Positions 5,545 to 63,153 of a DNA stretch of 64,000 nucleotides are shown here, piece after piece. Numbering within the stretch: position 1 is the stretch's first letter; every line of letters begins with the position of its first letter. Location: NCBI GenBank assembly GCA_026647365.1, contig JAPKGW010000006.1, positions 8,977 to 72,976 on the forward strand, given 5' to 3'. Origin of the DNA: Phycisphaerales bacterium. GTDB lineage: Bacteria; Planctomycetota; Phycisphaerae; Phycisphaerales; UBA5793. The notes below the pieces were generated by a model, which did not search any database, was not told where the DNA came from, and saw only the letters and a program-made list of their open reading frames with translations. Both the position numbers and the translations under genes were made by a program.

Positions 5545-5547
5545 GCC

Positions 5548-6084: not shown

Positions 6085-6111
6085 ATGGACGAAAGGACTC
6101 TGGAATCAGCC

Positions 6112-6468: not shown

Positions 6469-6510
6469 CCCCGCACCGCGCCCAGGCGTGCGGCGCAGAA
6501 AGGTCGAACC

Positions 6511-7197: not shown

Positions 7198-7224
7198 GAT
7201 CGTCAGACACACCCAAGCCCATGT

Positions 7225-11927: not shown

Positions 11928-11967
11928 GGCAGTTCTAACCCTCGAAAGGAACCAGTTTGTTCCCTGA

Positions 11968-12954
11968 TCAACACTTTGGAACCGCGGCGCGGTCAAGCCG
12001 GTCATTGATCGCCAGGCCCAGGCCACGGTCCGGGAAACGGTCGGCAATGATCGCGTCGAGGCCAAGTGCATCGAGGCGACGCATCGAGGCGAACACCCCG
12101 GCCGCGGCCTCGCGCAAGTCGCCCGACGCCGAGAGAATCTCTATTGCGCGATACTCCTTCGCATCGGCCGGCGCCGTCAGGCTCAGCCGTCCACAGCGCC
12201 CGCGATCGAGCCACCGAGGCGCATCGCCCGCGAAGTACAGAGGCGTCGCCGTCGCGTAGTGGCGCTCGAGCATCCCCGGGGCCGCCGCCGGCGCGCCGGG
12301 CGCGAGGCGACGCTGCGGGCGGCCGACTTCGCCGATGATCGACTCAATCTCTTCGATGCCGATCGCTCCAGGCCGAAGCAGCGTCGATCCCTCCGGTCCG
12401 AGGGCGATGATTGTGGACTCGATTCCCGCGCGGCACGGCCCGCCGTCGAGGACCAGGTCCACCGCCGCACCGAGCGACTCGCGCACGTGCGCGGCCGTCG
12501 TCGGGCTGACCGAGCCGAAACGGTTGGCGCTCGGTGCGGCGATCGGCACTCCGGCGCGGCGAATCAACTCGATGGCGACAGGGTGATCGGGCACGCGCAC
12601 CGCCACCGTCGTCAGCCCCGCCGTCACGATGTCCGGGATGGTCTCCGCGCGGCGCGGCAGGACGAGGGTGAGAGGACCCGGCCAGAATCGCTCCGCCAGC
12701 CGCGAAGCCTCGACGGGCCAGTCCGACACAATCGCCTGGGCCGCGGCGGCGCTCTCGACATGGACGATGAGCGGATCGAATCGAGGCCGGGCCTTGATCT
12801 CAAAGATGCGTGCGACGGCTCTGGGATTCGTCGCATCGGCGCCGAGTCCGTAGACCGTCTCCGTCGGGAATGCGACAACTCCGCCCGCCCGGACGAGTTG
12901 CACTGCCTCCGCGAGTTCGGATTCCAGCGGCCGGGCTGAAGGGTGTGCGCTCAT
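11968..12954 (-). CDS. tsaC: L-threonylcarbamoyladenylate synthase (Sua5/TsaC, long form)
   Basis: [29 protein letters not shown] and a C-terminal Sua5 domain. Start at the ATG at 12954. Confidence 0.9.
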
Positions 12955-13069
12955 GCGTCGTCGCAATGGTAGCGATGCGCCTTGTGCTGCTGCGCCGGAA
13001 GACTCAAATCTCGAATCTCCGAGTGAAGGCAACCACAGGCTGGCGCCTGCGGCTGGTGCTCAACCTCAA

Positions 13070-13110
13070 GCACAAAAGGAACGGGAGCGCGGCTGGGCCG
13101 CGCTCCCGTT
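13070..13110 (-). terminator. Intrinsic terminator downstream of 13138..14151
   Basis: Perfect 14-bp stem aacgggagcgcggc / gccgcgctcccgtt (13080..13110), followed on the minus strand by CCTTTTGTG. Confidence 0.7.
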
Positions 13111-13137
13111 GAGATTCAAGACAGAGAATCGGTCAGA

Positions 13138-14151
13138 TTACGGAACCTGAGCGACGTTGCTGGTCTGGCAGCCGGGGACCTGGATCAACTGCACGAAGCC
13201 GCGGCAAGCGCCCTGACCGGCCTGGGCGTTGACCGAGCCGGCGCCGCTGCCGGTGCCGATGGTGTTGTAGAGTTGCAGCTGGTTGGTGCCGAGGCCGAGT
13301 TGCGTGCCCTGGCAGGGACCGGACTGGATGGTGTAGTTGCCCGTGTTGCGGGCGAAGAGAATGCCCTGGTTGCGGTTGGGCTGCGCGCCGCTCCAGGAGA
13401 GTCGGACCGTGCCGGGGCAGGTGCCCGTGATGGAGCAGGTGTAGCCGCCGCCGGAGGTTCCGTTGATGATGATCGGCAGCTCACAGGTCGCGCCTTGGTC
13501 ACGAAGCATTGAAACCCAGCCCTCAGTGTTAATCTTCTGCATCGCGTTGCCGGGGCGGGTGACAGGGTTGTTCGGGTCGTTGGGATTGATATCCATCACG
13601 AAGGGTGCCCACACCGAGGCGCCTCCGAACCCGCGCCAGTCGATCCAGTATGTTCCGGGGCCGAGTTGCACGCCGCCCATGTCAAATGTGATCCTGTTGA
13701 CGGCGCGCTGATTGTTCTGAAGATTGCCGACTCCATTGAAAACTCGGTACATGTTGGTAAACGTCCAGGACGACGATGTCGAGGTCGAGCCGCGCTGTGT
13801 GCCCTGCTCAGGACCAGGACCATCGAAGATGCGCAGTTCTGCGTGCGTCCAGCCGGGGCTTCCTGGAGCCGAGCCCGTCTCATAGGCGTGGACGACGATC
13901 GAGGTGACGGTCCAGTTCTGGTTGGGCGGAACCGTGAAGTCATCAGCAACGCGATAGTACTCGAACGGGCTGTCGGCGAACCAGCGGGCGTTGGATCCCG
14001 CGACGTTCGGATTGATGGAACACATGCTCACGTCCGCCCCGCCGAAGCCTTGCCCGGGGTGGGTGATCATCGGGCCGTTGCTGTACAACTGCCCGATCGC
14101 CGGCGCGGCAACGAGCGCCAGACCGGCAACTGCAAACACACACTTCTTCAT
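13138..14151 (-). CDS. Secreted protein A with shared C-terminal Cys domain (...C-x-T-S-N-V-A-Q-V-P end)
   Basis: ATG at 14151 preceded by aggagac. Signal peptide MKKCVFAVAGLALVAAPAIGQ. The last 97 aa are ~55% identical to the tail of 46861..47874. Confidence 0.88.
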   Translation of the reverse strand: MKKCVFAVAGLALVAAPAIGQLYSNGPMITHPGQGFGGADVSMCSINPNVAGSNARWFADSPFEYYRVADDFTVPPNQNWTVTSIVVHAYETGSAPGSPGWTHAELRIFDGPGPEQGTQRGSTSTSSSWTFTNMYRVFNGVGNLQNNQRAVNRITFDMGGVQLGPGTYWIDWRGFGGASVWAPFVMDINPNDPNNPVTRPGNAMQKINTEGWVSMLRDQGATCELPIIINGTSGGGYTCSITGTCPGTVRLSWSGAQPNRNQGILFARNTGNYTIQSGPCQGTQLGLGTNQLQLYNTIGTGSGAGSVNAQAGQGACRGFVQLIQVPGCQTSNVAQVP

Positions 14152-14448
14152 TCTCGGTCTCCTGTCCTTGAAATGAGGAGAACAACCCGCCGAAGCCACG
14201 ACCATCGTGGCTCGATCGCGTCGACGGATCAACACAAAGCCGCGCATTGCTCGTCAGCAGTTTGCGCAGCGCTGTTGCGAAACTCAGGAGACCTCCACTT
14301 CAGATCTCCTACCCACATAGGCTCCGATCCAGTCGTGTCATTCAGCAACGCTTGGCGTGCATCGCATCGCTGAAGATTCAGTGTCCCGTCTCCAAGATAC
14401 TCGCACGCCGCCAGTTGGCAAATGCTATTCGTTCAGGGCGTTGTGTGA

Positions 14449-15441
14449 CTAGCCTGCCGTGAAGTCGGGGTACTGGGGGACGTAGTTGTACGACACGGCC
14501 GCGAACGAATGACCAACGCAGTCGCCGGCGCCATTTTGGCCTCCCTTCTCTGTCCGAATGGTGAAGGAATCGGAATTGCCTGGGATCAAGGAGCCGATAT
14601 CCCCTTCGGCATGGTCATAGAAGTTTGCATGCTGATTCGCGCCAAGGAGCCCCTGCCATGCATCGGTCGTCGAGCCAGTGCCGCCGAGCGTACCGCCGAT
14701 ATTCGTATTGTTGATGAAGAATTTGTCCGTCCAATCCCCCTGCTGCGTGTCCTGTTCACCATCGATTGCATTGATTAAGAAGTGGACGGATCCACTGTTA
14801 TAGGTTGTGCTGAACGAGAGTGTCGCATTCGCCTGATAGGGCACGCTCCCAGAGGCGTTGGAGATGTAGCCAGCGTACAGATCAACGGATTTCACCGTTA
14901 ACTCTCCTGACGACTCGCTGAAATCGTAGACCAGGAGCAGCGTCACACCCTCCGCGAGCGGGCCGCACCCGGAGGAATTAGTCCCCGTAGTTCCGCCGAT
15001 GGTGATGGTTGAACCAGGAGTGACATCGACCTCCAGCACATACGCGCTTGTCAGTATTGTGTTGAAGCACAGGCACCCCCCGACGTGGCACAGATCGGGT
15101 GTGCCATAGCCGACGAGGCCTCCAAAGGACTCGTTGCTGTCGATCTCGATTGCAGAGCTCGAAGGCGGCAAGGCGCATTCGTCATACGTCCACATGATGA
15201 ACGCTGCGATCAGAGTCGCATCCTGCGGAACCTGCGGAACCTCCAAGTCGAACGGTTCAGATTGCTGGATCGTGACATCATATCGGCGCGTGAAGTCGCC
15301 GGTCACGATGAAGTCCGCTCCGGAGCCGGGGTGCGTGAAGAACGGTTCCGGACCAAGGCCCGTCTCGCAATCCGCAGCGGCGGACTCGATCAGCAACAGA
15401 CTCATGACGATGGCGAAGAAGAAGTAGTTCTGACGATTCAT
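14449..15441 (-). CDS. Secreted hypothetical protein (lower-GC gene)
   Basis: ATG at 15441 preceded by ggaaggagac. Signal peptide MNRQNYFFFAIVMSLLLIESAAAD. T/S/G-rich beta-type sequence. Family not recognised. Confidence 0.8.
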   Translation of the reverse strand: MNRQNYFFFAIVMSLLLIESAAADCETGLGPEPFFTHPGSGADFIVTGDFTRRYDVTIQQSEPFDLEVPQVPQDATLIAAFIMWTYDECALPPSSSAIEIDSNESFGGLVGYGTPDLCHVGGCLCFNTILTSAYVLEVDVTPGSTITIGGTTGTNSSGCGPLAEGVTLLLVYDFSESSGELTVKSVDLYAGYISNASGSVPYQANATLSFSTTYNSGSVHFLINAIDGEQDTQQGDWTDKFFINNTNIGGTLGGTGSTTDAWQGLLGANQHANFYDHAEGDIGSLIPGNSDSFTIRTEKGGQNGAGDCVGHSFAAVSYNYVPQYPDFTAG

Positions 15442-30660: not shown

Positions 30661-30664
30661 AAGC

Positions 30665-30770
30665 GTCGGCAATGACCTACTTTCCCGCTGAGCAGTATCA
30701 TCGGCGGCCTGGGCTTAACTGCTGTGTTCGGGATGGGAACAGGTGTGGCCCCAGACCTTTGGTCACCGAC
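30665..30770 (-). rRNA. rrf: 5S rRNA (short, about 106-110 nt; ends +/-3 nt)
   Basis: The minus strand reads GTCGGTGACC...CCCATCCCGAACACAGCAGTTAAGCCC...GGGAAAGTAGGTCATTGCCGAC, with conserved loop/helix motifs and a terminal helix GTCGG/CCGAC. Confidence 0.9.
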
Positions 30771-30978
30771 AATGCACCGGCCGGGCCTTTCGGCCCGACC
30801 GGACGAAGTGACAAGGAAGAGAGTTGAGAACGCGCGTCATCGAAGAACGAAATCGCGGATGACCATTTGCACGCGATGGGCGTGCGGCCTTCCGGCTCCG
30901 GTCACTCCTGCGCTGAGGGAGGGCTGCAACGAGGCAGGCCTCACTGAGGCAGGGAGCGTGACACGGGCGCGGGTCGGC

Positions 30979-33794
<2,816 letters not shown>

Positions 33795-34230: not shown

Positions 34231-34270
34231 AAAAGTGGCCCGAGGCCGGCGGAAATACCCGTCGGCCTCG
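34231..34270 (-). terminator. Possible terminator between the pilMN-type operon and the rRNA promoter
   Basis: 8-bp GC stem CGAGGCCG/CGGCCTCG (34241..34270) with a 14-nt loop, followed on the minus strand by GGCCACTTTTC. Confidence 0.35.
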
Positions 34271-34294
34271 GCGCAAGTCCTTGTGGCGCAAGGA

Positions 34295-36292
34295 TCAAGT
34301 GCGGGTTGCCAGCGACCGCAGTCGCTGCCGCTCCTCCTCTCGCCTCGGGTCGCTCGGGTCGATTACCTCGATCGACCCGTCGGGCATAGCAACCACGACA
34401 AGCACCTTCTGATTCAGGGCTGAACCCCCATCGACCAGCACCACGTCAAGGAGCGTGGCGCCGGTGAAGAAGTCCACCTCGAGAGGCTGCCCGCCCGGCT
34501 CAGCAGAGGGAAGTGTCCTCCGCTCGCCGATCTGTTCGCCGGGCCGGCACGAAACGGCGATAACGCGGTGTACGCCTCGCGTGAAGGAAAAGACCTCGAA
34601 ACTGGCGCTTCGCTCGTCGATCTGCTCGTTGTGAATGCCGTTGACGGCGAAGAACTGCTGCGGCAGCGTAACGCGCACCGGCTCGGACCACGCGGACCAT
34701 TCCGAGGTGACGATGGCCGACCGGGCGAGGTCCTGCTGCGACTCCGAGAGCCGCGACTCTCGCCCGAAGAACGGGTTGTAGAGTCCGACGGCGAGGCGAT
34801 AGCGATAGGTCGTGCCAGGCTTGGCGGAGATGTCGTGCCACCAGACGCGAACCGCAGGGTTCTCGAAAAGCCCCTTGACGGCCGCGATCTGTCCAGGCGA
34901 CTTTCCGCCCGATGGTGGAGGCGGAGCCTTGCCGCCGCCGCCTCCCTCCATGCCCCAGCCTCCCCCTTCCCCATGCTCGGTACTGGGCTGGGGGGGCTGG
35001 TCAGGTCGAAGCGGCCCCTTGCCGTCCGGCGGAGGACCGAACGGAGAAGGGCCGGTCGAGCCAGTGGGCGATGCCACGGCGTCCGGGAAGCCGGTGTAAT
35101 CCGGATCGAGATCGAGAAGCGACTTCTTGGCGGCCTCATAGGTCTCGCGTGCTTTGGCGATGCGCTCGTCGAGTCGTCGTCGAGCGGTCTCCTCCGGCGT
35201 TTCGCGCGGCCGCAGCTCCTTGTCGGGTTTTTCCGGCGCGGAGGGGACGCCGCCGCCTTCCATGCCGCCGCCCTTGCCCGGGCCACCTCCTGAATCGGTC
35301 GGCCGACTGGTCGGCTGCGATTCCTTCTGCTTGAGAAAGCGATTCAGGCTGTCCTGAGCACGCTCGACCTCACGCCAGGCGGCCCTCATGCGCCGCTCGG
35401 CATCGAGCACCTCGGGACTCTTCGGAACCGTTCGCTTGACCAGGTCAAAGGACCACGGTGTGCCGTCCGCAAGACTGTAGAAGCCCGGCTGGTAGAGCGA
35501 TGCGCCGTAGGTTACGGTCTCGGCCAGCAGTTCGTCCTTGGCGCGCGTGGCGGCGGCAAGCGTGGCGAGGCGGTCACGCACACTTACCTGCCCCGGAATA
35601 GGACTGAGGACTTCGGCGCTCGACCACGTTCCATCGGGAAGCAGGTGCTGGCGCTCGACGACGACGTCGAGGATCGCCATGTCCTGGTCCACCCACTGGG
35701 CCGGAATGGGCTTGCGGCCCTCGACGAATCCGGAGAGGGATGAGCGCAGTGCGGTTCCGTCAAACTCCGCGGAGATGTGCACGGCATTGAGGTCGAAGGG
35801 AGGCGATGACGCAAAACGACGAGCAAGGTCAGGCTGCGCCTCGACCTCCACGGGATCGATTGTGTAGTTGACCGAGGAGGCCTGGAGATTGACGGGTGCC
35901 GGAGCGCGTACTTCGGCGTACATCTCAGTCGCGGTACTGATGATGCTGTTGCCTTCGGCGCCGAGTTTGAAAGCGACGGGCGCGACGAGTGCAATGGAGG
36001 GCGCCCTGTCGTCCCCGCGCTGCCGGTACTGTCCCTCAAGCCAATCGGTGAGGCGGTCCGGCGCCGGGACATCGAGCGAAGTCGGGCTTTCGATCTTCGC
36101 CTTGAGGTTTCTCGCCTTCTCCGCGAGCACCTGGTCCACGGCCGAAGGGCTGTGGGACGCGGTGCCAAGGGTAACTGCATTGGGATCGGTGAAGAAGGCC
36201 TTGCCGGCGATGGCGATGACAATGACGCCCGCGACGCCGATGACGACCTTCTCCACGTGCTGCTCGAAGAAGTTGATGCCTTTGGGTTTCAT
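34295..36292 (-). CDS. Bitopic envelope protein, 665 aa (gene 3 of PilMN-led operon), unknown family
   Basis: ATG at 36292. N-terminal TM VVIGVAGVIVIAIAG. Charged helical segments, two G/P/M/E-rich linkers (GKGGGMEGGG and GGGWGMEGGGGG), and a beta-rich C-terminal region (VRVWWHDISAKPGTTYRYRLAV). Confidence 0.85.
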   Translation of the reverse strand: MKPKGINFFEQHVEKVVIGVAGVIVIAIAGKAFFTDPNAVTLGTASHSPSAVDQVLAEKARNLKAKIESPTSLDVPAPDRLTDWLEGQYRQRGDDRAPSIALVAPVAFKLGAEGNSIISTATEMYAEVRAPAPVNLQASSVNYTIDPVEVEAQPDLARRFASSPPFDLNAVHISAEFDGTALRSSLSGFVEGRKPIPAQWVDQDMAILDVVVERQHLLPDGTWSSAEVLSPIPGQVSVRDRLATLAAATRAKDELLAETVTYGASLYQPGFYSLADGTPWSFDLVKRTVPKSPEVLDAERRMRAAWREVERAQDSLNRFLKQKESQPTSRPTDSGGGPGKGGGMEGGGVPSAPEKPDKELRPRETPEETARRRLDERIAKARETYEAAKKSLLDLDPDYTGFPDAVASPTGSTGPSPFGPPPDGKGPLRPDQPPQPSTEHGEGGGWGMEGGGGGKAPPPPSGGKSPGQIAAVKGLFENPAVRVWWHDISAKPGTTYRYRLAVGLYNPFFGRESRLSESQQDLARSAIVTSEWSAWSEPVRVTLPQQFFAVNGIHNEQIDERSASFEVFSFTRGVHRVIAVSCRPGEQIGERRTLPSAEPGGQPLEVDFFTGATLLDVVLVDGGSALNQKVLVVVAMPDGSIEVIDPSDPRREEERQRLRSLATRT

Positions 36293-36336
36293 GGTGGAAT
36301 CTGCCTTTCGGAGGCATTTGATGCTATTGGTTTGAC

Positions 36337-37782
36337 TCAGCCTTGCGGCGACTTCTCCTGGATGCCGAAATGCTCCCGCACGATCGGGGGCATGAGATCG
36401 ACGGTCCAGTCGCGCAGCCAGAGCGATTCGATGTCGAGTTCAACCAGAATGACGGGATCGGCGCCGTAGTAGAAGCCTTGTGCCAATTCCGCCGTCACGT
36501 CCACGGGCATCGACCGGAACCCGACGACGCTCATGAAGTTGGTGGTGTGAAAGGCGTCGAAGAGGTGCTGAAGACGACGGCTGTCCACCACGAGCGTGAC
36601 CTTGACAGTCCGCATGTCGTAGAGGCCTGTCCGGGCCGACCGTCCGCTGATCGACTTGGAGTAATCCGTCGGGAAAGGCTGGTTCGGATCTGCATAAGAG
36701 GTCGCGCTCGGGGCGGCAGCAGAGCCGGATGAACTCGACCCTCGCTCATTCGAAGGCGTTTCGAAAGCGCCCATCTTGGAAAACGAGACGCCCTCCATGC
36801 CGCCTTCCATCCCGCCGAAGCCGCCTTCCATTCCGCCAAAACCGCCTTCCGGAGCGCCGGAGGGCGCCTGCTCGGTGGCGCGGCGGACGCTCTCCTCGGT
36901 CACCGAAGTCGGATAGAGGCGTTCGGGAAGGATGTTGACAATGCGCTTGACGACGCTGGACGGATCGCCGAATACGGGCGTTCGCTCTCCATCGACGGTG
37001 TTGGCGCGGCGGATGGCGGCCATGATGTCCGAGTTGAGCCAGTAGGTGTGCTGCCACTCATACCAGCGGAACTTGTCGGGCGCCTTCTGATCAGGCCAGG
37101 GGTCGAGGTTGAAGACGCGGATGTCGGCGAAGACGGAATGCTCCTGGGCCGCCTGGGCGTAGATGGCCAGGCGCCGTGCCGTCATCGCCTCGCGCAGTTT
37201 TGTGCGCTCCGTGTCCGTGAGCGTGACTTCGGACCCGACGTTGAACTGCGTCCGCCTGAAGTTGCGCTCGAACTCGATGAGTTGCTCCTGAACGAGTTCA
37301 GGCGCGAGGGGCATTCCGGCGCCGCTGTTGCGGAGCAGATCTTCGTGCGAGCGGATGTACGCGCCGTGGATGCGGAACGGCAGTTCGTTCATCTGAACGC
37401 GCGAAGGCTCGGGCAGCAGTCCGGGCACGAGTTGCGTCTCCTTGCCGGCGCGGTTCACATCGACGACCCAGCGCTCCAGAGCAGTGGCGTCCGCCTTGAT
37501 CGCCTGCCGGACCGCCTGGTACTCCTCGAGCATCCGCGCATTGAGCGCCATGCTGGTTTCGACCGACCGAGCGCCGGGTGCGAGCGGCTTGACGACGATC
37601 TGCGCCGATGAGACGCGAGTCATCCGCTGGTCCTGCTCGTTGACGCGCTTCTTGATTTCGTTGGCGATCGAAGCATTCCACGAACTGCTCGCGTAGAGCA
37701 CGACGGGAAGGACGATTACGGCAATGGCGCACATGATCACGATGATCAGATGGGCCTTGATCCAGTTGAGAATCGGTGTCAT
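36337..37782 (-). CDS. Bitopic envelope protein, 481 aa (gene 2 of PilMN-led operon), unknown family
   Basis: ATG at 37782, 3 nt after the upstream stop (TGAccATG), with gaggaggg upstream. TM IKAHLIIVIMCAIAVIVLPVVLY. Linker EGGFGGMEGGFGGMEGGMEG. Confidence 0.85.
   Translation of the reverse strand: MTPILNWIKAHLIIVIMCAIAVIVLPVVLYASSSWNASIANEIKKRVNEQDQRMTRVSSAQIVVKPLAPGARSVETSMALNARMLEEYQAVRQAIKADATALERWVVDVNRAGKETQLVPGLLPEPSRVQMNELPFRIHGAYIRSHEDLLRNSGAGMPLAPELVQEQLIEFERNFRRTQFNVGSEVTLTDTERTKLREAMTARRLAIYAQAAQEHSVFADIRVFNLDPWPDQKAPDKFRWYEWQHTYWLNSDIMAAIRRANTVDGERTPVFGDPSSVVKRIVNILPERLYPTSVTEESVRRATEQAPSGAPEGGFGGMEGGFGGMEGGMEGVSFSKMGAFETPSNERGSSSSGSAAAPSATSYADPNQPFPTDYSKSISGRSARTGLYDMRTVKVTLVVDSRRLQHLFDAFHTTNFMSVVGFRSMPVDVTAELAQGFYYGADPVILVELDIESLWLRDWTVDLMPPIVREHFGIQEKSPQG
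36787..36850 (-). repeat. Imperfect tandem 21-nt coding repeat (FGGMEGG units)
   Basis: Plus strand gccgccttccatcccgccgaa (36799..36819) and gccgccttccattccgccaaa (36820..36840), plus partial copies on each side. Confidence 0.75.
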
Positions 37783-37784
37783 GG

Positions 37785-39800
37785 TCAGTTGCCCTCCTCG
37801 TTGGAGCCGGCTGATGAATCGGTCGCCGCCTTGGACAGGTCGACGAGTTGAATGGTCCACGCCACCTCGACCTGGTAGTACTCGGTGTCGGGAGGAAGAG
37901 TGGCGGCGGGCTGGGGCAGTGGCGCAAGCGAGTCCAGGTTGAGGCCGCCGCCGAAACTGCGCATTCCGGGCGACTGGAAGCCTTCTCCCATGGGAGCGAA
38001 CCCTTCTCCCATGGGCGTCTCCATGCCGCCCTTGCCCAAGCCGCCATGCTCGAAATCGCGCTCGCCGCCGCCGGGGCGGGCGCTCGGGCGGCCTGCGCCG
38101 CCGGGAGTGTCGACCGCCGGCGGGGTGCGGAACGAGTCGCGGCGCAACGTCTCAGGCCGTGCGCCCGGCTCGTCCTTGCTGACGATCCGATAGGGCAGGC
38201 CGGGCCGCTCGGCATTCTTCTCGAGCCACTGAATGACCGAACGGTTCACCAGCGCGACGCTGTCGCGGTTGCTCGTCTCGACCCTCATGCGCAGGCGAAG
38301 GCGAGGCATGGCCTCATCGCCGCGAGGCGGAATGTAGGTGTACTCGAGGCTCTTGAGTTCGAGCAGCTGCCTCTGGGCAGGCGGAATCGAGTTGATCTTC
38401 TCGGGATCGCCGCTGAGCAGTTCGGGCTGAGGCTTTGCCTCCGCCAGCATGGCCGCGACGTCGGCGAGGACGTTGGGCCACACATCGCGGCCCGCGATCA
38501 TCCCGCGGATGTTGAGCGGCTTGGCCGTGATGTCCGTCTCCTGCGTGATCTTGTCGAAGTCCGTCTTCAGGTTCGTCGCCTCGCGGATGATCGGCTCGAT
38601 CTGATCGCGGTACTCCGTGGGCTGGCGGGTGTACTTGCCGTCCAGCATCGGTTGCGCGAAGGCGATCATCGAGCCGAAAACCACCATGGCGGCCGCGGCG
38701 CCGAACCACTTGATCTTCTGCCCCCACAGGCGGTCCCGTACGACGCTGACCGGGATGAGATTGACGTCGATCGCGGCCATTCCCAGGCCCTGGAGCGCCA
38801 GGCCGTACGCCGTCGCCATGTTGAGAATGTGCTCGGCAAACTGTGGATTGTCACCGGTCCTGAGGCGCTTGAACTCGTCAAGGCGGGAGATGTCCATCTG
38901 CACCTGCTGGCTGAGGAACTTGCGCAGGCCGGGAAGGCGGAAGGTCGAGCCGACGCCGATGAGGCGCGTCAGGTTCGCTTCGCGGTGCAGAGACTGGTAG
39001 TACCCGATCGACCGCTGCACATCCTGCGCGAGGTCGGCGAAGACGGGGCGCATGGCTGAGAGGATCTGCCGTCGATACTTGCTCGTCTGCGCCTCGGACT
39101 TCAGTTTCTCCGCCTTGCTGTAGGTGAGTTTGAAGGAACTGATGAGCGCTTCGGTGAAGTTGTGCCCGCCGATGGGGAATGTGCGGATCCACGTGCGCCC
39201 GCCCTCGGCAATGATGAGGTCGGTGCTCGTCGTGCCGATGTCGAGAATGATCGTGCCCGGCGATGAAGGCCCGAGGTCGAGGTCATATTGAAGGGCGTTG
39301 AAGACGGCGACGGGAGAAATCGTCAGGCCGTCGGGTGCCAGCCCGAGTTCGCCGTAGAGATTGAGGCGGGCCTGCACCGCGCCCTTGGTGATGGCGAAGA
39401 TGCCCACTTCAACTTCGGGAGTTTCCTCGCTCGTGAACGTTTCATAATCCCACTCCACTTCCTCGATGGGGAAGGGAATCTGCTGCACCGCCTCGAACTT
39501 GACGATGTCGGGAACTTTCTTCGGCTCGACCGGGGGCAACTTGGCGAATCGGGCAAACGCGCCATTGCCGGGAACCGAGATCAGGATCGGCCCCTGCCGC
39601 ATGTCCGGCTGCTGGCTCATGAACTGTCCGATGGCGAGGCGGATCATTTCATCCGAATCGACATCGGGCGTTGAGAGCACTTTCTTGTGCGGGATGAAGG
39701 CGAAGTCCGCGAGGGTCACGTCGTCGCCGCTGCGCTCGAGGCGCACGGCTTTGAAGGCATGAGAGCCGATCTCGATGCCCCAGGCGCTTGAACTGGCCAT
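37785..39800 (-). CDS. pilM: PilM (actin-like ATPase) fused to a PilN-like TM/periplasmic region
   Basis: ATG at 39800 preceded by aaggag at -7. WGIEIGSHAFKAVRLE and ILDIGTTSTDLII (actin-fold phosphate motifs), then VNLIP plus TM KIKWFGAAAAMVVFGSMIAF (PilN signature), then ~290 aa more with a GGMETPMGEGFAPMGEGF linker. Confidence 0.88.
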   Translation of the reverse strand: MASSSAWGIEIGSHAFKAVRLERSGDDVTLADFAFIPHKKVLSTPDVDSDEMIRLAIGQFMSQQPDMRQGPILISVPGNGAFARFAKLPPVEPKKVPDIVKFEAVQQIPFPIEEVEWDYETFTSEETPEVEVGIFAITKGAVQARLNLYGELGLAPDGLTISPVAVFNALQYDLDLGPSSPGTIILDIGTTSTDLIIAEGGRTWIRTFPIGGHNFTEALISSFKLTYSKAEKLKSEAQTSKYRRQILSAMRPVFADLAQDVQRSIGYYQSLHREANLTRLIGVGSTFRLPGLRKFLSQQVQMDISRLDEFKRLRTGDNPQFAEHILNMATAYGLALQGLGMAAIDVNLIPVSVVRDRLWGQKIKWFGAAAAMVVFGSMIAFAQPMLDGKYTRQPTEYRDQIEPIIREATNLKTDFDKITQETDITAKPLNIRGMIAGRDVWPNVLADVAAMLAEAKPQPELLSGDPEKINSIPPAQRQLLELKSLEYTYIPPRGDEAMPRLRLRMRVETSNRDSVALVNRSVIQWLEKNAERPGLPYRIVSKDEPGARPETLRRDSFRTPPAVDTPGGAGRPSARPGGGERDFEHGGLGKGGMETPMGEGFAPMGEGFQSPGMRSFGGGLNLDSLAPLPQPAATLPPDTEYYQVEVAWTIQLVDLSKAATDSSAGSNEEGN

Positions 39801-40468
39801 GAGCCAACTCCTTTGCGTCAAGGTTGCGTATGAAGCATGGGCTGCGGCCCCGAGGGCTGCATGGACCTGCTTCGCATGGCCGGCACGACCACGACGCGGG
39901 TTCAGTTTTTCTGTGAATCACACCGTCTTTCAGCCTCTGCCAGAGGTCAGACATTCGTCGTCGAGTTGGCTGGGAGCCGAATCCGATCCACCGGCTGCTG
40001 TTCACCTGGGCATCGGCCAAAGGCCGACGGGCAGGGCAGAGGCAGAGGGCGAATCACATGTTCGGCGGGCAGCGCTCGAGAAACTCCTGTCGGAGGTCTG
40101 GATGCCGGGAGGCCCGTACCGCGTGGGCAGGCCCGGAAACGATCCGGGGGACCCACTACCAGGATCACCACGCATGGTGATCGGTCGCACATCCTTTCTG
40201 GCCCGCACGGCGCGACTCTTGAATCGCCTCGGGCCGCTCGTCCGCCGCCCAGAGGTTCCCGCAACACACGGAAAAGGCTGGTCGGCCCCGAAACCCACAT
40301 GCACGCTCGCCGAGAGGCGGGCGAACACCTGGGGGCTGTCTTCTCACTATTAGAACGGCCTCGACCGCCGGTTGCAAGCGATTCCCGAAGAAAATCTGCA
40401 AAATCTGCAGGAGCCAGGACGGCTGGACGACTCCGCCACCCGTTCTCCTCGTGGCACACCCGCTGCCT

Positions 40469-41350
40469 TCATCGCTCGGCAATCACGTATGCGACCCACC
40501 CGGCGCAGACCTCGCCCCTGGAGGTCGGGCGGAAGATGCCGTTGCCTTCGCCCTTCCTGTCGGACCCTTCCCAGTAGACCGTACTACGCGCAAAGCCGGC
40601 CTCGAGAAGGAGTTCGCGTATCTCGGCGATCGACCAGAGGCGCCAATCGTACGTGAACGCCCTGTTCAACGCGGTCCCGTCGGGAAAGCGGAAGTGAATG
40701 TGGCAGAGAGTTTCGCTGGTGATGGGATTGAAGGCAGCCTGATCCCAGACGTAGGTGAAGCCGGCGAACTTGCGCGGCTCCTCCATGACGTCCTGCGCTT
40801 CGTACCCGCCGTAGCAATCAAGATACAGCACGCCGTCGGAAACCAGTGCCCGCCGCGCCGCGCGGAAGTATTCGAGAAGCCGCGCCCGCGTCTTGAAGAT
40901 GAAGTAACTGAAGTTGAAGGCGGCAACGAGATCGACTTCGCCTGCCCGCACGCGCGTCACATCATCACGGATCAGCTCGACGCGAGTGCGCTCTTCAGGC
41001 GTAAGCCAGGAGAGGTTGTGGGCGATGGCCCAGGCGAGAGTTCCGGCGTCGAGATCGACGCCGATGGCCCGGCGCGTTCGGCGGCTGCGGGCCCACGTGC
41101 ATGCGAGGAATGCCGTGCCGCAGAAGTCTTCACGCAGAACCTCCGGCGATCGGCCTCGCAAGGTGCGGAAGGTGCGATCAATAAATGCGACCTCGGCCTC
41201 CGGGCTTTGCACGGCCCGTTCGTAGAGTTGATGCGGGTCCGCCGTCGCCGCCGTCTGCACAGCACGGCGCCGGCTTCGGCCCGGTCGCCCCCGACGTCGC
41301 CCGCGCGATCGCACCGATTCTCGCCCGCTCGTTCGGCTCTCCTGTGGCAT
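40469..41350 (-). CDS. Class I SAM-dependent methyltransferase
   Basis: Only the C-terminal 293 aa of the 827-aa ORF is used (ATG at 41350). VLREDFCGTA.. / AIGVDLD (motif I region) / LVAAFNFSYF / GVLYLDCYGG. The upstream part of the ORF is antisense to smc. Confidence 0.8.
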   Translation of the reverse strand: MPQESRTSGRESVRSRGRRRGRPGRSRRRAVQTAATADPHQLYERAVQSPEAEVAFIDRTFRTLRGRSPEVLREDFCGTAFLACTWARSRRTRRAIGVDLDAGTLAWAIAHNLSWLTPEERTRVELIRDDVTRVRAGEVDLVAAFNFSYFIFKTRARLLEYFRAARRALVSDGVLYLDCYGGYEAQDVMEEPRKFAGFTYVWDQAAFNPITSETLCHIHFRFPDGTALNRAFTYDWRLWSIAEIRELLLEAGFARSTVYWEGSDRKGEGNGIFRPTSRGEVCAGWVAYVIAER

Positions 41351-41737
41351 GGGGGGCAAGTGTAGCCCACATGCCTTTGAAACACGGCGAGGCGAAGCCG
41401 CGCGTGAACGGATGCGTGGCGCCGCGCCGTGGCACGTTGACAGGATGCCCAGCGGGCGATCGGAGACGATCAAGGGAACGGAACATGTCGGCAGCCGCGG
41501 CGGGTCGGCCGCTTGCGCCATCGCATCCCGCACTGCTCTGCTCCAGTGAAGTCGAAGCGCCGAGGCGTCGACGCTGCGGGTCTTTTTGTGTTGTGGAACG
41601 ACCTCGGACCGATACCATATCCTCTGGGGCGGCTCGCCCCGGCGCGGCAGGGAGGGCCGGTGGAGTTGCCGGCGAAAGCCAATCCCCCGCAGGTCATTGA
41701 ACGGCCGACGGTTGGACATGGAGGTCTTACCACAATC

Positions 41738-44700
41738 ATGCGACTGGCCCGACTCAGAGTCCACGGCTTCAAGTCCTTTGCCGACCCGACCGAGTTCCGC
41801 TTTAACGACCCGATTACCTGCATCGTCGGGCCCAACGGCTGCGGCAAGTCCAACGTCGTCGACGCCATCAAGTGGGTCCTCGGCGAGCGATCTGCCAGGA
41901 GCCTCCGCGGCGAGCAGATGATGGATGTCATCTTTGCCGGCACGACCAGCCGCCAACCCATGAACATGGCCGAAGTCGTGCTCACCTTTGAGAACCCGCT
42001 TCTTGACGCGGCGACGGGAAAGCGCGAACTGCCCGTCAAGAGTGAACTCGTCGACGTCGGCCGGCGGCTGTACCGCGACGGAACCAGCGAATACCTCATC
42101 AACAGCGCGAGGGCGCGCCTCAAGGATGTGCGCGACCTGTTCCTTGACACCGGCATCGGCGCCGATGCCTACTCGATCATCGAGCAGGGCAAAGTCGATG
42201 CGATGCTCACGAGCAATCCTGTCGAGCGGCGCGCGATCTTCGAGGAAGCCGCGGGGGTCGCCAAGTTCAAGGTGCGGCGCATTGAGGCCATGCGCCGCCT
42301 CGAACGCACGGAGATCAACCTCGCCCGCTGCCGTGAGCAGCTCGACAACGCCGAGAGGCGGCTGCGGATCGTCAAGGGACAGGCCGCCAAGGCGCGGACC
42401 TTCAAGGGACTTGATGACGAGTTGCGGGCGCTTCGCACCGCCCATCTCCTCGACCTTTACCACGAACTGCACGAGACGATTGACGGGCTGACCTCGGAAC
42501 TCTCCCGCCTCGACGCCGACCGCGCCGGCGTGATGCAGCGCGTGCAGGAACTCGAAGAAGCGAGGCAGGACGCGAACATTGACCGCGACCGCCTCCAGAA
42601 GCGCTGCACCGAGATCGAGCAGGACCGATTGCAGTTGCAGGCCAGGCGCGATCAGGCGCAGCAGCGGCGTACGATGACGATCGCCAGCCGCGACGAAGCG
42701 CAGCAGGAGATCGCGGCCGAGCAGCGGCGGCTGGGCGAACTCGACGATCGTATCGGGAACCTGCGCGCAGGCGTCATCGAGCACGAGCGATCGCACGAAG
42801 GGCTGGCGCAGGCGCGGAGCGACGCGGAGCGCGCGGTCGAAGCGGCGCTCGCGCGGCGGGCCGAGGCAGATGCCGCGGTCAACCGGCTCAACCGCCTCAT
42901 CAGCGAGGCTCAGCGGGCTCTGGCGGGCATCGAACGCGAAGTCGTCTCGCATTCCGCGTCAATCGAAGCGATCGATCTTCGCCTCGGCGAACTCGACGGC
43001 CAGACGGCGCAGATCGAGGCGCGTCGCGGCGAGATCGAGTCGCGGTTGGCCGCGCTGGCCGGGCAGGGCGAATCGGCGGCGCAGAAGGCCGTCGAGGCTG
43101 AAGCGCAGATCGCGCATCTTCAATCACAGCAGGCTGAGCACGAGCAGCACGCCGCGACGCTCAGCGGCCGCCAGCGGGCAATCAGCGGGACGCTCGGCCT
43201 GCTTGAGCAGGAGCGAGCGGGCCTCGACGCGCGGCGCCGGACGCTCAAGGAAATGCTCGAAAGCGGCACGGAACTCGGCGAGGCCGTCCGCCACGTCCTG
43301 CGCCAGCGGCACGAGGGCACGCGCTTCGCCTTTGTGCGCGGCCTGCTCGCGGATGGAATCGAGACGGACGTCGAGAATGCCGCAGCCGTCGAGGCGGCGC
43401 TCGGGCCGCTGCTTCAGGCAATGGTGGTCGAGCACCCCGCGGATGTGATCGATGCACAGACCGATCTCGAAGCGCTCAGCGGCCGGATCACCTTCCTGCC
43501 CCTGCGGGCGGCGGGTGGCGACGTGGATGCACGGACCTCCTGGCACGAGTTGATTCCAGGCGCTCGCCCGCTTCTCTCGCTGGTGCGCGTCCCTGAAGAG
43601 TGGCGCGAACTGGCGAGCCGCTTGTTCCAGAAGACAATGCTTGTAGAGACGCTCGACCAGGCCCTGCTGCTCGGCGCCGGACCGCTGCGCGGGTGCCGGT
43701 TCGTTACCGTCTCGGGGACCGTCCTCGAGGCCGACGGGCGCATCGTCGCCGGGCCCAACTCGGCCGAGGGAACGGGCGCGGGCCTGATCGTTCACCGCGT
43801 CGAGATGAACAGCCTCGCCGGGCAGGTCGAAGCACTGACGGGGCGGATCGAGACGCTCCGCGCCGAACTCAAGGCGCTCGATGATGAGGCGGCGGCGCTC
43901 GATCAACGCCGCTCTGAACTCGATCATCGCCTCTTTGAGACGCGACACCATCGCGACAAGACCATTCACGAGATCGAACGCCTCGATGCCGAACGCCAGC
44001 GGGCACAGCGTGACGGCCAGCGCCTCGAAGAAGAGACGATCGCCGCGCGATCGCGCCGCGATGAACTCGTCGCCGCCCGCACGGGCAGGCAGGAGCATCT
44101 CGATTCGCTCGAACGCCTGCGCATGGAGCAGGCGCAGGCACAGTCGAGCCTCGCGGAGCAACTGTCTTCGGCAGAGGCGGACGCGGCCCGGGCGTCCGAG
44201 GGCGTCACCACCGCGCGCGTTGAAGCAAGCCAGGCGGCCGAGCGGCTCGCCGCATCTGATCGTGAGCGCCGCCAGATTGAGGCCGCAGTCGATGAGCAGC
44301 AGCGGCAGCGCGACGCCCTCGATTCCAGCCTGCGGCAGCGCTGCGCCCGCCTCATCGACTTCGAGCGGATCATCGACGAAGCGGTTTTCGAGGCCGAAGA
44401 GTGTTCCGGCGCGCTCCAGGCGTCGGAAGGCGATCTGGAGCGCCTCGCCGGCGAGCACGCGCAGTGCCAGGCTCGCGTCGTCCAACTCGGCGAGGAACTC
44501 AACGCCGCCCGGCAGCGCCTCGCCATTGTCGAGCGGAACTACCACGCCGTCGAACTGAGCAAGCGCGAAAGCGAAGTCAAGCGCGAGCATCTTGATCAGA
44601 GCGGAGCCGAGGACCTGTCCCTTGACTTGCGCCGCGAGTACGCGCAGTATCGGGAAGTAATCCTCACCGGCGAAGTAGAGCCCGTCGATCGCACGCAGGC

Positions 44701-60645: not shown

Positions 60646-62013
60646 TCATGCCTGGCGCGGCGGATGGGCCTCGGGAAACCTCAGCGTGAATGTCGCACCC
60701 GCGCCCGGGCGGCTTTCCACCTCCAGCCGGCCGCCATGACGCTCCACGAGACGGTACGAGATTGAAAGACCAAGGCCCGTCCCCTTGCCAACTGGTTTGG
60801 TCGTAAAGAACGGCTCGAAAATTCGGCTGAGGTGCTCCGGCGCGATTCCTGTCCCAGTGTCGGTTACGCGGAGCACCACGCAGCCGTGATCTCGGCTTGC
60901 AGCAAATGTGAGCACGGGATCGGGCGCCTCGGCCATCGCGTCGATCGCGTTGATTGCCAGGTTCACGAGCACCTGCTGCATCGCGAGGGGCAGGGTGCAG
61001 GTGCGCGCCAGCGGCTCGGGCACATCACGCACGATGCGCACGCGGTCGAGGCGGCGGTCGAGATCGACGACCTGGATCACGCGATCGATGAGTTGCCCGA
61101 GCGGGATGGGCGTGCCCGAGGGCGAGTCGGGCCGCGCGAATGAGGTCATCTGTCGCACGATCGTGTGGATGCGTTCGATCTGCTGGCGGAGCGTGAGGAG
61201 GGCGCCGGAGCGTGGGGCTTCCGGGTTGCGCTGCATCAGCTGGAGAACGCTGTCCATCGAGGCAAGGGGGTTGGCGATCTCGTGGGCCAGTCCGGCGGCC
61301 ATCTGCCCCAGGGCGACCATCTTCTCGTGCTGAACCATCGCCTGCTGCTGATCGCGCAGGCGGCGCGACATTTCGAGGATGCGGCCGTGGTGCACGAGGA
61401 CGCGGCGCTCATCGTCGCGCAGGCGACGCGTGATGCGGTTGACGATCAGGACAGTGACGTAGAGGGTGAGGACGAGGCCGGCGGCCTGGAGCCACTCGTC
61501 CCGAGTTGCCGGCGCCTCGCCCGCCAGGGCCAGAAGAGCAAGAAGGAGAGCGGCGGCGAGCGTCGCGGCGGCGCACGCCATGATCGGGCCCAGCAGCAGG
61601 CTCGCAAAGACCATGTGAAAGACGAAGAAGCCGGTCATCGGGCTGCTCAATCCGCCGGTCCACAACACGAGAAGGGACAGCATGAGCAGGTCAACGGCGA
61701 TCTGGGTCCATATGACGGCCAGGAGCCGCCGCGGCCGGCGCAGAAGCGCTGCGCCCCGGCGAACCCACTGCTGGATTGCGGCGTTGGCGGCAAGAAGCGC
61801 TGCGCCGACCAGTATCCCGCGCCAGGTGTTCGGAAACCACCCGAGAATCTGCCAGTCAATTACCGACCCGGCAAGGACCAGCGCTCCCGCGATCCAGCGC
61901 AGCGTCATGAACCAGCGCACCTGCTGCACGAGGAGGCGAGGATGCGCCGCACCTGAAGCCGTACTCGATCGAACGATCCTGGATGCGTGCTGCTGCAAGA
62001 GCCGATCACTCAC
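60646..62013 (-). CDS. Sensor histidine kinase with multi-TM membrane-embedded N-terminal domain (HisKA + HATPase_c)
   Basis: H box [13 protein letters not shown] box [13 protein letters not shown] boxes DTGTGI and GKGTGLGLS. About 6 TM segments at the N-terminus. The GTG start overlaps the upstream stop (GTGA). Confidence 0.9.
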
Positions 62014-63068
62014 GCTGTGGGAGTTTCTTCAGGGCCTGAGACGACGCCGACGGAGCGCGGCAGGTCGAGCATTTTCTGGCCGGGCACATAGTCGGTCAAA
62101 ACGATGCGTCGCACGTGCTGAAGCGCCTCGATCGTTCCGTTCATGCGGGCCAGGCAGGATCGGATGCGGGCGAGACGGTCGGGCAACTCGGCCGCGGCAT
62201 CAGCGCGGCGGTGCAGCAACTGGACCTGGAGTTCGATGATAGCCAGGGCGTTGTTGAGTTCGTGGCTGAGCGTCCGGGCCGCCTGGTGGAGCGTTTCGAC
62301 CTTGCGCTGCTCGTTGGCGGCGAGCTGCTCGGCGAGGTGGTTGTAGGTTGCCGCGAGCAGACCGAACTCGCCGGGCAGATCCGTCGGGACACGGTAATCG
62401 AATCGCTCGCGCGCCCATTCTCCGCTGGCGCGCCGGAGCAGGTCCACCGGGCGCAACACCATCCCCGTAATGCGCAGCACGACGAGAACGGAGATGTTGA
62501 CCACGACGATGGCGGCGACAGCAATGCCCAGCACCACCCATCGGAAATAACCCGTGATCTCCACCTGCCGCGAGGAGGCCAGCGCCCGGGCATTGCGCGT
62601 CAGGGCGAGGATGTCCGCCTGCATCGCGCCCTGCTCCGCCAGCAGTTCATGACCGAGTTCCACCTCTTCACCTCTGTCGAGCGCATCGGCCAGCGACCCC
62701 AACTCGTCGGCGAGGATCGGAAGGTTGTCGCCAAGTCGGTCGCGGATGGCCGGGCCGGGCGAGTCTGCGGGCCAGTCGAGGTCTTCCGCGAGGAGGCGCT
62801 CCAGGCTCAGACGGATCTCGCCGGCCCCTCGGCGCAGGTCTTCGCTGCAGGGCCGTCCGCCCGCCTCCCGGGCAAGGACCATGCGAGTCTCAATGTCAAT
62901 GACCAGCCCGCCCAGGTCGTGCAGCCGGGCGATGTAGGCGGTCGTTACGGCCCGGCTCTCGTCGAGGCGCTCCAGGAGCCGCTCGAGGAGGACCACGGCA
63001 CCAATGGCCAGGACCGCAAAGAGGGCGATCAATGAGCCAAGCCCGAGAAGAAGTTTGCGACGCAGCAT
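62010..63068 (-). CDS. TM sensor - HAMP - DHp (HisKA-like) protein lacking an ATPase domain
   Basis: TM1 LLLGLGSLIALFAVLAIGAVVLL, a ~170-aa extracytoplasmic helical region, TM2, a HAMP-like segment (LRPVDLLRRASGEWA...LLAATYNHLAEQL), and an H box TLSHELNNAL. It ends ~75 aa later with no N/G boxes. The start (ATG at 63068) is uncertain. Confidence 0.8.
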   Translation of the reverse strand: MLRRKLLLGLGSLIALFAVLAIGAVVLLERLLERLDESRAVTTAYIARLHDLGGLVIDIETRMVLAREAGGRPCSEDLRRGAGEIRLSLERLLAEDLDWPADSPGPAIRDRLGDNLPILADELGSLADALDRGEEVELGHELLAEQGAMQADILALTRNARALASSRQVEITGYFRWVVLGIAVAAIVVVNISVLVVLRITGMVLRPVDLLRRASGEWARERFDYRVPTDLPGEFGLLAATYNHLAEQLAANEQRKVETLHQAARTLSHELNNALAIIELQVQLLHRRADAAAELPDRLARIRSCLARMNGTIEALQHVRRIVLTDYVPGQKMLDLPRSVGVVSGPEETPTA

Positions 63069-63153
63069 TCCTCCGGCACCATGCAAGCGGCGCGCCGCGA
63101 AGAGGCGGCACGCCGATTGCACCCGCATTTCGAGTACCCGGACGGAAGCCACC

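Follow-up and report, generated by a model that had tools for sequence, protein, structure and literature searches.

The three-gene operon considered here lies on the minus strand of a 64,000-nt stretch of Phycisphaerales DNA (hereafter the window), flanked by a divergent SMC gene on one side and the 23S-5S ribosomal RNA (rRNA) genes on the other. Its products probably form the alignment subcomplex, or assembly platform, of a type IV filament machine, either a pilus or a type II secretion-like pseudopilus, of the Planctomycetes-Verrucomicrobia-Chlamydiae (PVC)-type lineage represented by Amuc_1101, Amuc_1100 and Amuc_1099. In the best-supported reading, g1 (37785-39800, -; 671 amino acids, aa) is a PilM-PilN-type fusion with GspL-like architecture. 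The second gene, g2 (36337-37782, -; 481 aa), with one N-terminal transmembrane (TM) helix, a PilO/Amuc_1100-like fold and no known sequence family, corresponds to PilO, GspM or Amuc_1100. The third, g3 (34295-36292, -; 665 aa), a member of an unannotated family with an N-terminal hydrophobic helix, takes the position of the PilP, GspC or Amuc_1099 connector.

The three open reading frames (ORFs) together span 34295-39821, and identical Logan contigs with independent gene calls yielded the same products of 671, 481 and 665 aa. Scanning a genome collection with the g2 alignment returned 249 relatives, of which the best 80 loci (L001-L080) were retrieved, nearly all of them under the label Phycisphaerae, Phycisphaerales or Planctomycetota. 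The order g1-g2-g3 is kept in all 80 wherever the contig permits, and the three genes are real, all of them being conserved and colinear in these loci from other species. In the window, g1 starts at the ATG at 39800 with an AAGGAG ribosome-binding site ahead of it, two bases part its TGA from the ATG of g2 (AAC TGA CC ATG), and 44 nt separate the g2 stop from the g3 ATG. Most relatives show a 4-nt overlap between the end of g1 and the start of g2, and the spacer between g2 and g3 measures 66 nt at the median across loci. The triad is presumed to be co-transcribed, with g1 and g2 translationally coupled in most relatives. A hairpin sequestering the Shine-Dalgarno sequence at the g1 start was considered and rejected, its energy being like that of shuffled sequences (z = -0.56).

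The cytoplasmic domain of g1 is covered by the PilM_2 model (PF11104), which matches aa 8-337 (38790-39779, -) almost from end to end (profile positions 1-338 of 340; E = 7e-29; 101.3 bits, >27) and thereby delimits a PilM actin-fold domain. The TIGR01175 pilM model scores 141.9 bits, above its cutoff of 133. The best family match is NF045709, the 'Amuc_1101 family PilM-like pilus complex protein' (E = 1.2e-59), which aligns g1 aa 1-454 with model positions 1-463 of 608 and runs through the TM region. Searching the PDB with the g1 family profile retrieved PilM of M. xanthus, Thermus and Pseudomonas at E-values from 1.5e-31 (3jc8_M) to 2e-19, and FtsA merely at 0.006-0.015. The alignment to the P. 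aeruginosa PilM:PilN(1-12) chimera 5eou reaches residue 369 of 372, that is, into the PilN peptide. Homologs at E <= 1e-10 number 4056; those named by their source are called PilM, and the best 120 of the 4056 all come from the same clade as the window. More than 100 residues of the cytoplasmic domain are invariant in 36 homologs. The predicted nucleotide-binding motifs of the actin fold are invariant in the same set, namely G8/E10/G12, D187-I-G-T190 (DIGT) and G282-x-G284-S-T286 (GxGST).

Directly after the PilM domain, the alignment of homologs places a PilN-type motif in cis, VNLIP (aa 346-350; 38751-38765, -), a putative counterpart of the PilN peptide that PilM binds. It reads (V/A)NL(I/V)P in the 36 homologs, with N347 and P350 invariant. 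A TM helix follows (aa ~364-384; 38649-38708, -; conserved hydrophobic stretch KWF(A/G)AAAA) and then a periplasmic part of ~287 residues (37788-38648, -), consisting of a conserved domain (aa 385-545), a Gly-rich linker and, at the C-terminus, a short conserved strand motif seen in the same alignment. The PilN Pfam model PF05137 gave no match to g1 at E <= 1, and the hhalign alignment of g1 aa 432-531 to the g2 PilO-like domain, at whose end both have a WLR motif, was weak and non-significant (probability 5%). Because the PilM models, the PDB matches, the invariant VNLIP, the TM helix and the periplasmic domain all agree, g1 is a PilM with a predicted PilN-type segment fused in cis, like GspL. 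By its family match this architecture is not new, as it is already recognised in the Akkermansia Amuc_1101 family. An assignment of g1 to FtsA was rejected: TIGR01174 scores 22.2 bits against a cutoff of 175.85, and the FtsA matches in the PDB lie far behind those of PilM. A weak match to the SHS2-type 'FtsA' model PF14450 is common to PilM, and the mreB and eutJ models score far under their cutoffs.

The relationship of g2 to PilO was found in its predicted fold. Neither g2 in Pfam, NCBIfam (E <= 1) and the PDB sequences, nor its family profile in the PDB, gave a match, and none of the 23 aligned family members matches PilO (PF04350) or T2SSM (PF04612) in Pfam. Several hits were discarded: the NCBIfam GspM match of one g2 family member (E = 0.3) is noise, the phmmer and profile matches of g2 and g3 to PDB sequences are Gly-linker and coiled-coil artefacts, and the Pfam and NCBIfam matches within both families are coiled-coil or low-complexity noise. 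A profile search of 1.84 billion representatives returned 2149 relatives of g2 (family representatives at 50% identity), 945 of them at E <= 1e-30. The best 150 of the 2149 are 409-530 aa long and mostly aligned over nearly the whole profile, and the named relatives are each a 'hypothetical protein' of Phycisphaerales or Planctomycetota metagenome-assembled genomes (MAGs).

The AlphaFold model of g2 (mean predicted local distance difference test, pLDDT, 77) opens with a long N-terminal helix (12-56) and a helical region. A disordered Gly/Met/Glu linker comes before the C-terminal alpha/beta domain (aa ~385-465; 36388-36630, -; strand-helix-strand-helix-strand, pLDDT > 90), which is the most conserved stretch of the family. 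The top Foldseek match in the PDB is P. aeruginosa PilO (2rjz; E = 4e-3, probability 1.0). Ranks 1 and 3-13 are all PilO (2rjz, 5uvr and M. xanthus 3jc8_Oa) or Amuc_1100 (6laf, 6lad, 6kny), with probabilities of 0.63-1.0, E-values from 4e-3 to 0.2 and target-normalised TM-scores of 0.26-0.48; rank 2 is a phage connector chain. The 71-column PilO matches superpose at a root-mean-square deviation of 2.3-3.6 Å, and some matches are aligned over ~335 columns. Judging by match length, as Foldseek gave no query coordinates, the PilO matches probably fall on aa ~385-465. The modelled layout, a single N-terminal TM helix, a helical region and a C-terminal ferredoxin-like alpha/beta core, is that of PilO and GspM. 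Despite the weak scores, we accept a PilO/Amuc_1100-like fold for the g2 model because the ranking of matches is coherent and because g2 sits at the PilO/Amuc_1100 position, while membership of these sequence families is rejected.

g3 represents a family without a recognised relative. Its 45 homologs all come from the same lineage, and no match was found in Pfam, NCBIfam (E <= 1) or the PDB sequences for g3, the members of its family or their profile. The model (pLDDT 80) comprises a helix at 8-34, an alpha/beta domain at ~120-290, long helices at 293-325 and 366-395, two disordered Gly/Pro-rich linkers, coiled coils and a 12-strand region at 478-645 ending in a helix. This beta-rich C-terminal region (aa ~478-645; 34358-34861, -; 12 predicted strands, pLDDT > 90) carries the motif W.HD...G..YRYR...NP, in which D487, Y496, R497, Y498, R499 and N506 are invariant, and BLASTP still detects it in the distant clade with a linked secretin described below. 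Foldseek returned generic Ig/FN3 tandems alone, at probabilities below 0.25, and hence no meaningful PDB fold match. A second conserved motif lies at the N-terminus (K4, G5, E10, H12 and E14). Since K4, G5 and E10 are nearly invariant, g3 was also considered as a giant prepilin. The protein starts MKPKGINFFEQHVEK, and the idea was rejected on the polar residues (Q, H, E and K) that follow E10 and on the lack of an N_methyl match.

Some features recur among the three proteins. The N-termini of g2 (ILNWIKsHL; aa 1-15, 37738-37782, -) and g3 (GINFFEQHVEK; aa 1-17, 36242-36292, -) are conserved just before the TM helices, and they resemble one another and, loosely, the PilN INLLP motif held by g1. 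From their sequence, these motifs may be docking peptides for the PilM ring. Comparisons by hhalign among the g1, g2 and g3 families gave probabilities of 5-12%, which are not evidence; the resemblance of the g2 and g3 N-termini and a 14-column PG..Y.Y match were likewise non-significant. Disordered Gly-rich linkers occur in g1 (aa ~575-625), g2 (aa ~305-356) and g3 (aa ~334-355 and ~409-469), and in the window and its close relatives they hold repeated G-M-E and G-F-G motifs (GGFGGMEGGFGGMEGGMEG). A 30-aa segment with at least 50% G+M+P is present in 36-70% of loci, varying by protein. Met-rich linkers were rejected as a family trait, as the Met richness is confined to close relatives of the window and the Gly richness is wider.

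A preliminary description of the operon, made from the sequence alone, had proposed much of this layout. The PilM-PilN fusion with its VNLIP motif, TM helix and periplasmic residues, the TGAccATG coupling and the 44-nt gap were all seen as described. The models also bear out a single predicted N-terminal hydrophobic helix in both g2 (12-56) and g3 (8-34), as well as helical stretches, Gly-rich linkers modelled at low confidence, and C-terminal domains that contain beta strands. That neither protein belongs to a known family holds for the Pfam, NCBIfam and PDB sequence searches and, for g3, for the fold as well. It does not hold for the fold of g2, and neither does the claim that no PilO was recognisable, since the best PDB folds of g2 are PilO (2rjz, 3jc8_O, 5uvr) and Amuc_1100. 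Confident profile matches of g2 or g3 to PilO, PilP, PilQ, GspL or GspM, which that description had named as signs of an ordinary pilus cluster, did not appear in the family scans, while a fold match of g2 to PilO did. The fusion has a precedent in the Amuc_1101 family, which matches g1 through the TM region, and the actin-fold domain, there called PilM/FtsA-like, is PilM and not FtsA (22 against 176 bits for TIGR01174; PilM in the PDB at 1.5e-31).

The link to a secretin came from the most distant g3 and g2 homologs, which were traced on their contigs. At one such locus (L085) the triad encodes 705, 445 and 584 aa; it is matched by the A1 profile at 7.7e-33 and the A3 profile at 3.4e-159, and its g3 homolog, P0068, is retrieved by phmmer from the window g3 at 7e-8. 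A secretin of 1063 aa (12125-15316, +) lies 370 nt after this triad on the same strand. Its C-terminal half matches f1 pIV (6.4e-11), RcpA (1.8e-8), GspD (~1e-6), M. xanthus PilQ (3jc8_Q, 9e-7) and Neisseria PilQ. A T2SSE-family (PilT/PilB-type) ATPase of 389 aa lies 2.2 kb upstream of the triad and, judging by its length, may be PilT-like. Scanning metagenomes with this secretin yielded six loci, and the order g1-g2-g3-secretin was found in every one with upstream room: L087 (secretin at 5322-8510), L088 (8001-11396; 77% identity), L089 (7938-11144; 50%) and, partially, L090. The PilM domain of L085 is 46% identical to that of the window, at the edge of the range in the 80 loci, and an equally distant locus (L084) has no secretin after g3. 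Because the triads of L085 and L087-L089 precede a secretin, the window module is homologous to one wired to a secretin in pilMNOPQ order; because distant relatives keep the secretin adjoining, the operon appears to be an unusual variant of a known machine and not a new kind. The position of g3 upstream of the secretin at these four loci supports its likeness to PilP and GspC only as a functional analogy. The N-terminal half of the L085-type secretin is long and non-secretin, with a TPR-like helical region, an acidic low-complexity stretch and a poly-Gly tract. No family is listed for the 1063-aa protein in the precomputed Pfam record, although its phmmer matches to PDB secretins reach 6e-11.

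Most of the lineage has no secretin gene beside the triad. Among the ~40 further window ORFs scanned there is no secretin, no T2SSE (PilB/PilT-type) or T2SSF (PilC) protein and no further pilin family, and a single prepilin-type gene, an N_methyl/DUF1559 protein at 11010-12071 (-), was found by regular expression and family scans, just as the preliminary description had stated. Searching with tblastn and the L085 secretin, together with Pfam annotation of the flanking families, revealed no secretin by the triad in L001-L080; none of the recurrent flanking families is pilus-related, and the class III signal-peptide motif is absent from every fetched locus. The claim that the operon lies directly upstream of an rRNA promoter is also sustained, as a promoter-like site (TTGACG-16-TATTAT; 34147-34120, -; consensus scan) is followed by the 23S and 5S genes. 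In the relatives, 23S rRNA lies downstream of g3 on the same strand, at a median of ~500 nt, in 53 of the 59 loci that offer 1.5 kb or more of sequence there, and the remaining loci have unrelated housekeeping genes instead. The upstream neighbours vary by locus (Memo-like, ribosomal protein S1-like, UDG, epimerase, CusF-like and HlyIII genes). The 23S-5S linkage is stable across relatives with g2 only ~25% identical, while all other neighbours vary. The preliminary description had counted adjacency to type IV pilus genes in relatives against its own reading, and such adjacency was seen in part: the triad does not stand beside pilus genes in the 80 related genomes, and it does precede a secretin in L085 and L087-L089.

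We consider an assembly platform to be the likely function of the triad. In such a platform, g1 would form a cytoplasmic ring docking a PilB/PilT-type ATPase and a PilC platform protein, and its periplasmic domain would pair with g2 as PilN does with PilO. Held by its conserved N-terminal helix, g3 would act in place of PilP or GspC, crossing a wide periplasm with its coiled coils and long linkers rich in Gly and touching the secretin with its conserved, beta-rich C-terminal region. In the clade of the window, the genes for the secretin, the ATPases, the platform protein, the prepilin peptidase and the pilins or pseudopilins (for instance the abundant DUF1559 prepilin-like proteins) would lie elsewhere, so that we infer an unlinked secretin and unlinked ATPases in this genome. 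The pilMNOPQ genes and pilBCD, pilA and pilT usually occupy separate loci, with ATPase and pilin genes normally unlinked. Several observations weigh against an assembly platform. With 202.7 bits against a threshold of 650, g1 misses the Amuc_1101 equivalog level and is related to that family without being an equivalog. No member of the g2 and g3 families scanned has a sequence link to PilO, PilN, PilP, GspM, GspC or the Amuc families, and the PilO fold match of g2 is short (71 columns) with weak E-values (4e-3 to 0.1). No PilP or GspC chain is among the top 50 fold matches of g3, whose N-terminus has neither a lipobox nor a Cys. Moreover, no secretin, ATPase, PilC or pilin gene lies within 10 kb on either side of the triad in the window or the 80 related genomes, and a 23S rRNA operon is an atypical conserved neighbour for pilus genes.

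A different interpretation is that, in the clade of the window, the ancestral pilus platform was uncoupled from its secretin and repurposed as an autonomous actin-like trans-envelope scaffold. It would serve a housekeeping process such as FtsZ/FtsA-independent binary fission, growth of the envelope, or a structure for uptake or at the surface. We regard this interpretation as unlikely, though somewhat less so than the other alternatives. Near the triad there is no secretin or pilus gene in 80 genomes, the 23S-5S genes are its only conserved neighbour (53 of 59 loci), and its surroundings in the window are of a housekeeping kind (SMC, LpxB, SecY). Phycisphaerae are also without ftsZ, ftsA and ftsB and yet divide by binary fission (PMC12283558, PMC5147048). 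In addition, g2 and g3 are far larger than the ~200 aa given for PilO and PilP in the preliminary description, and the cytoplasmic domain of g1 is under strong constraint, with a median identity of 61% over 74 loci against ~27% for its periplasmic part, g2 and g3. This contrast may be ordinary, however, as periplasmic parts of such machines may commonly diverge more quickly than cytoplasmic ones, and the lack of nearby ATPase and pilin genes is normal for pilMNOP(Q) clusters. Positive evidence for a role in division is lacking, every test makes g1 a PilM and not an FtsA, the sister branch retains its secretin, and Akkermansia and other Verrucomicrobia have a related cluster beside FtsZ and FtsA. 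The division or envelope role suggested by the preliminary description has circumstantial support only and is not the best reading. A more specific version, which we think improbable, holds that in most Phycisphaerales the platform was cut from its secretin and kept by the 23S operon as an autonomous, growth-coupled actin-like scaffold, with g3 as a new periplasm-spanning connector. If true, it could be part of an FtsZ/FtsA-independent fission machinery or of an envelope or uptake pore, in which case the flexible Gly-rich linkers would line or span the enlarged periplasm.

A further alternative is a type II secretion-like or uptake platform, in which the triad would be GspL, GspM and GspC and a short pseudopilus of DUF1559-type pseudopilins would export or import polymers. 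The architecture of g1 is indeed that of GspL (a single chain that joins an actin-like domain, a TM helix and a periplasmic domain), and the N-terminal helix and beta-rich C-terminus of g3 are closer to the topology of GspC than to the lipoprotein PilP. The only prepilin-type gene in the window encodes a DUF1559 protein, and the mucin-utilisation (MUL) genes of Akkermansia, pilus genes among them, are implicated in mucin acquisition (PMC13174399, PMC12418764). However, the order M/N-O-X-secretin is that of pilMNOPQ and not of a gsp operon, g1 matches PilM models and not GspL, and GspM was matched by one g2 family member alone, at noise level. The T2SSE-family ATPase neighbouring the L085 triad may be PilT-like, judging from its 389 aa. 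The present data do not separate a pilus from a pseudopilus, and a dedicated secretion or uptake platform appears rather unlikely to us. Most improbable is that the operon is a decaying relic, a pilus platform that lost its secretin and no longer functions. The missing secretin in 80 genomes would fit such decay, but the conservation of the operon contradicts it: three intact, colinear and translationally coupled ORFs in 80 species-level genomes, invariant motifs persisting at ~25% overall identity, and a g2 family of 2149 representatives at 50% identity.

A conserved non-coding leader occupies the stretch upstream of g1 (39801-40377, -), beginning with a promoter-like TTGCAA-17-TCTAAT (40377-40349). 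Over ~540 nt it is 83-88% identical to its homologs in L001 (2597-3194), L002 (7379-7973), L003 (7387-7989), L004 (7383-7986) and L005 (7370-7975), above the identity of the adjacent coding DNA, and it is partly kept in L006 (7496-7855). Invariant runs reach ~70 nt, the promoter-like element is invariant, and no 3-base periodicity is apparent by eye in alignment A4. RNAalifold predicts a multi-helix structure, in whose 3' domain 95.6% of cells pair; compensatory changes are seen at 15 of 68 pairs, against 2-5 in slid controls, a level that 0 of 500 shuffles attain. Rfam holds no family for it, and nhmmer iterations and a covariance model (R1) found the window and L001-L006 alone. The stretch may be a structured operon leader specific to this clade, or else an RNA in its own right. 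L002 (WYBR01000112.1), which has a 69%-identical triad and the same leader, was deposited as a 'Vicinamibacteraceae bacterium' (Acidobacteriota) and is probably a mislabelled or mis-binned MAG.

Further upstream, the ~580-nt non-coding stretch is followed by a small S-adenosylmethionine-dependent methyltransferase-like gene (40469-41260, -; 263 aa) and then by the divergent SMC gene. The methyltransferase-like gene is placed outside the module because only L001 and L002 have it there; in L050 it lies elsewhere. The longest ORF there (827 aa, 40469-42952) runs across SMC on the opposite strand and is an artefact. In about 20 loci, among them L029 (2106-2471, +), a conserved small membrane protein of ~120 aa without a Pfam family is encoded on the strand of g1, ~255 nt ahead of it, and it may be an accessory operon gene in that sub-clade. 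On the other side, a GC-rich, terminator-like hairpin (34238-34274, -) lies 3' of the g3 stop, followed by CACUUUUCGG. The 76-nt segment containing it folds at -35.6 kcal/mol (z = -3.25), and the consensus scan did not report it. Downstream of the triad, and outside the module, are 23S (30979-33794, -) and 5S (30664-30770, -); this rRNA locus (30664-33794) consists of 23S and 5S only, with no 16S gene within the window. The G+C content is 63-68% in most 2-kb windows. Two Cpn60/GroEL-family genes (1-1803, +, and 2682-4295, +) enclose a 170-aa ORF without a family. An adjacent pair of histidine kinases is found at 60646-62013 (-) and 62010-63287 (-), of which the former carries a six-TM sensor domain like that of PilS (PF25323, 7e-8); neither has an established link to the triad.

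Literature searches covering PilM, type IV pili, cell division and crateriform structures of Planctomycetes and Phycisphaerae found no account of this operon. If the triad is an assembly platform, two unannotated families gain a working role, among them the g2 family, whose named members are 'hypothetical protein' entries. The Akkermansia-type PilM-led system would extend to Planctomycetota, linked by weak sequence and fold similarity, in a phycisphaeral version without an adjacent secretin in 80 of the 80 related species-level genomes fetched. g3 may reveal how an unusually wide planctomycetal periplasm is bridged, and it is a concrete target because it is large, confidently modelled and without a structural relative in the PDB. 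Were the triad independent of secretin and ATPase, it would be a candidate for division without FtsZ, which the evidence does not favour.

Among known systems, FtsA shares the actin-fold ATPase superfamily with g1, but g1 has neither an FtsZ-binding tail nor an amphipathic helix and carries a TM anchor and a periplasmic domain. The GspL-GspM-GspC(-GspD) system offers a precedent in GspL for an actin-like domain, a TM helix and a periplasmic domain in one chain; GspM is PilO-like, and GspC is bitopic and bridges to the secretin. The triad differs in having no match to GspL, GspM or GspC models, in its operon order and context, and in having no gspE, gspF or gspG-K nearby. Type IVa PilM-PilN-PilO-PilP(-PilQ) of P. 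aeruginosa and M. xanthus (3JC8) is closer, as g1 passes the PilM thresholds and keeps an INLLP-type motif, PilO is the top fold match of g2, and the gene order with the secretin of the distant branch is pilMNOPQ. Differences are that PilM and PilN form one polypeptide, that the Pfam models of PilN, PilO and PilP are unmatched, that g3 is not a lipoprotein and has no PilP fold match, and that no secretin is linked to the triad in the clade of the window.

The Akkermansia cluster encodes the PilM-like Amuc_1101, Amuc_1100, Amuc_1099 and the type II/III secretion-family (secretin-type) Amuc_1098 (PMC5332112, PMC13174399). Products of Amuc_1098-1102 are abundant in envelope fractions and have been assigned to a pilus-like system (PMC5332112, PMC13174399), which is interpreted as serving attachment and mucin acquisition (PMC5332112, PMC13174399, PMC12418764). 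In contrast to this cluster (MUL2), g1 reaches 203 of the 650 bits that the equivalog cutoff demands, g2 (481 aa) and g3 (665 aa) have no NCBIfam similarity, and the window and its 80 relatives have no secretin after g3 and no prepilin-motif gene by g1. Both are nevertheless PilM-led, g1 matches NF045709, and the predicted fold of g2 matches the Amuc_1100 crystal structures. By locus-tag numbering, the series 1101-1100-1099-1098 parallels g1-g2-g3-secretin of L085 and L087-L089, and both Akkermansia and the lineage of the window belong to the PVC superphylum.

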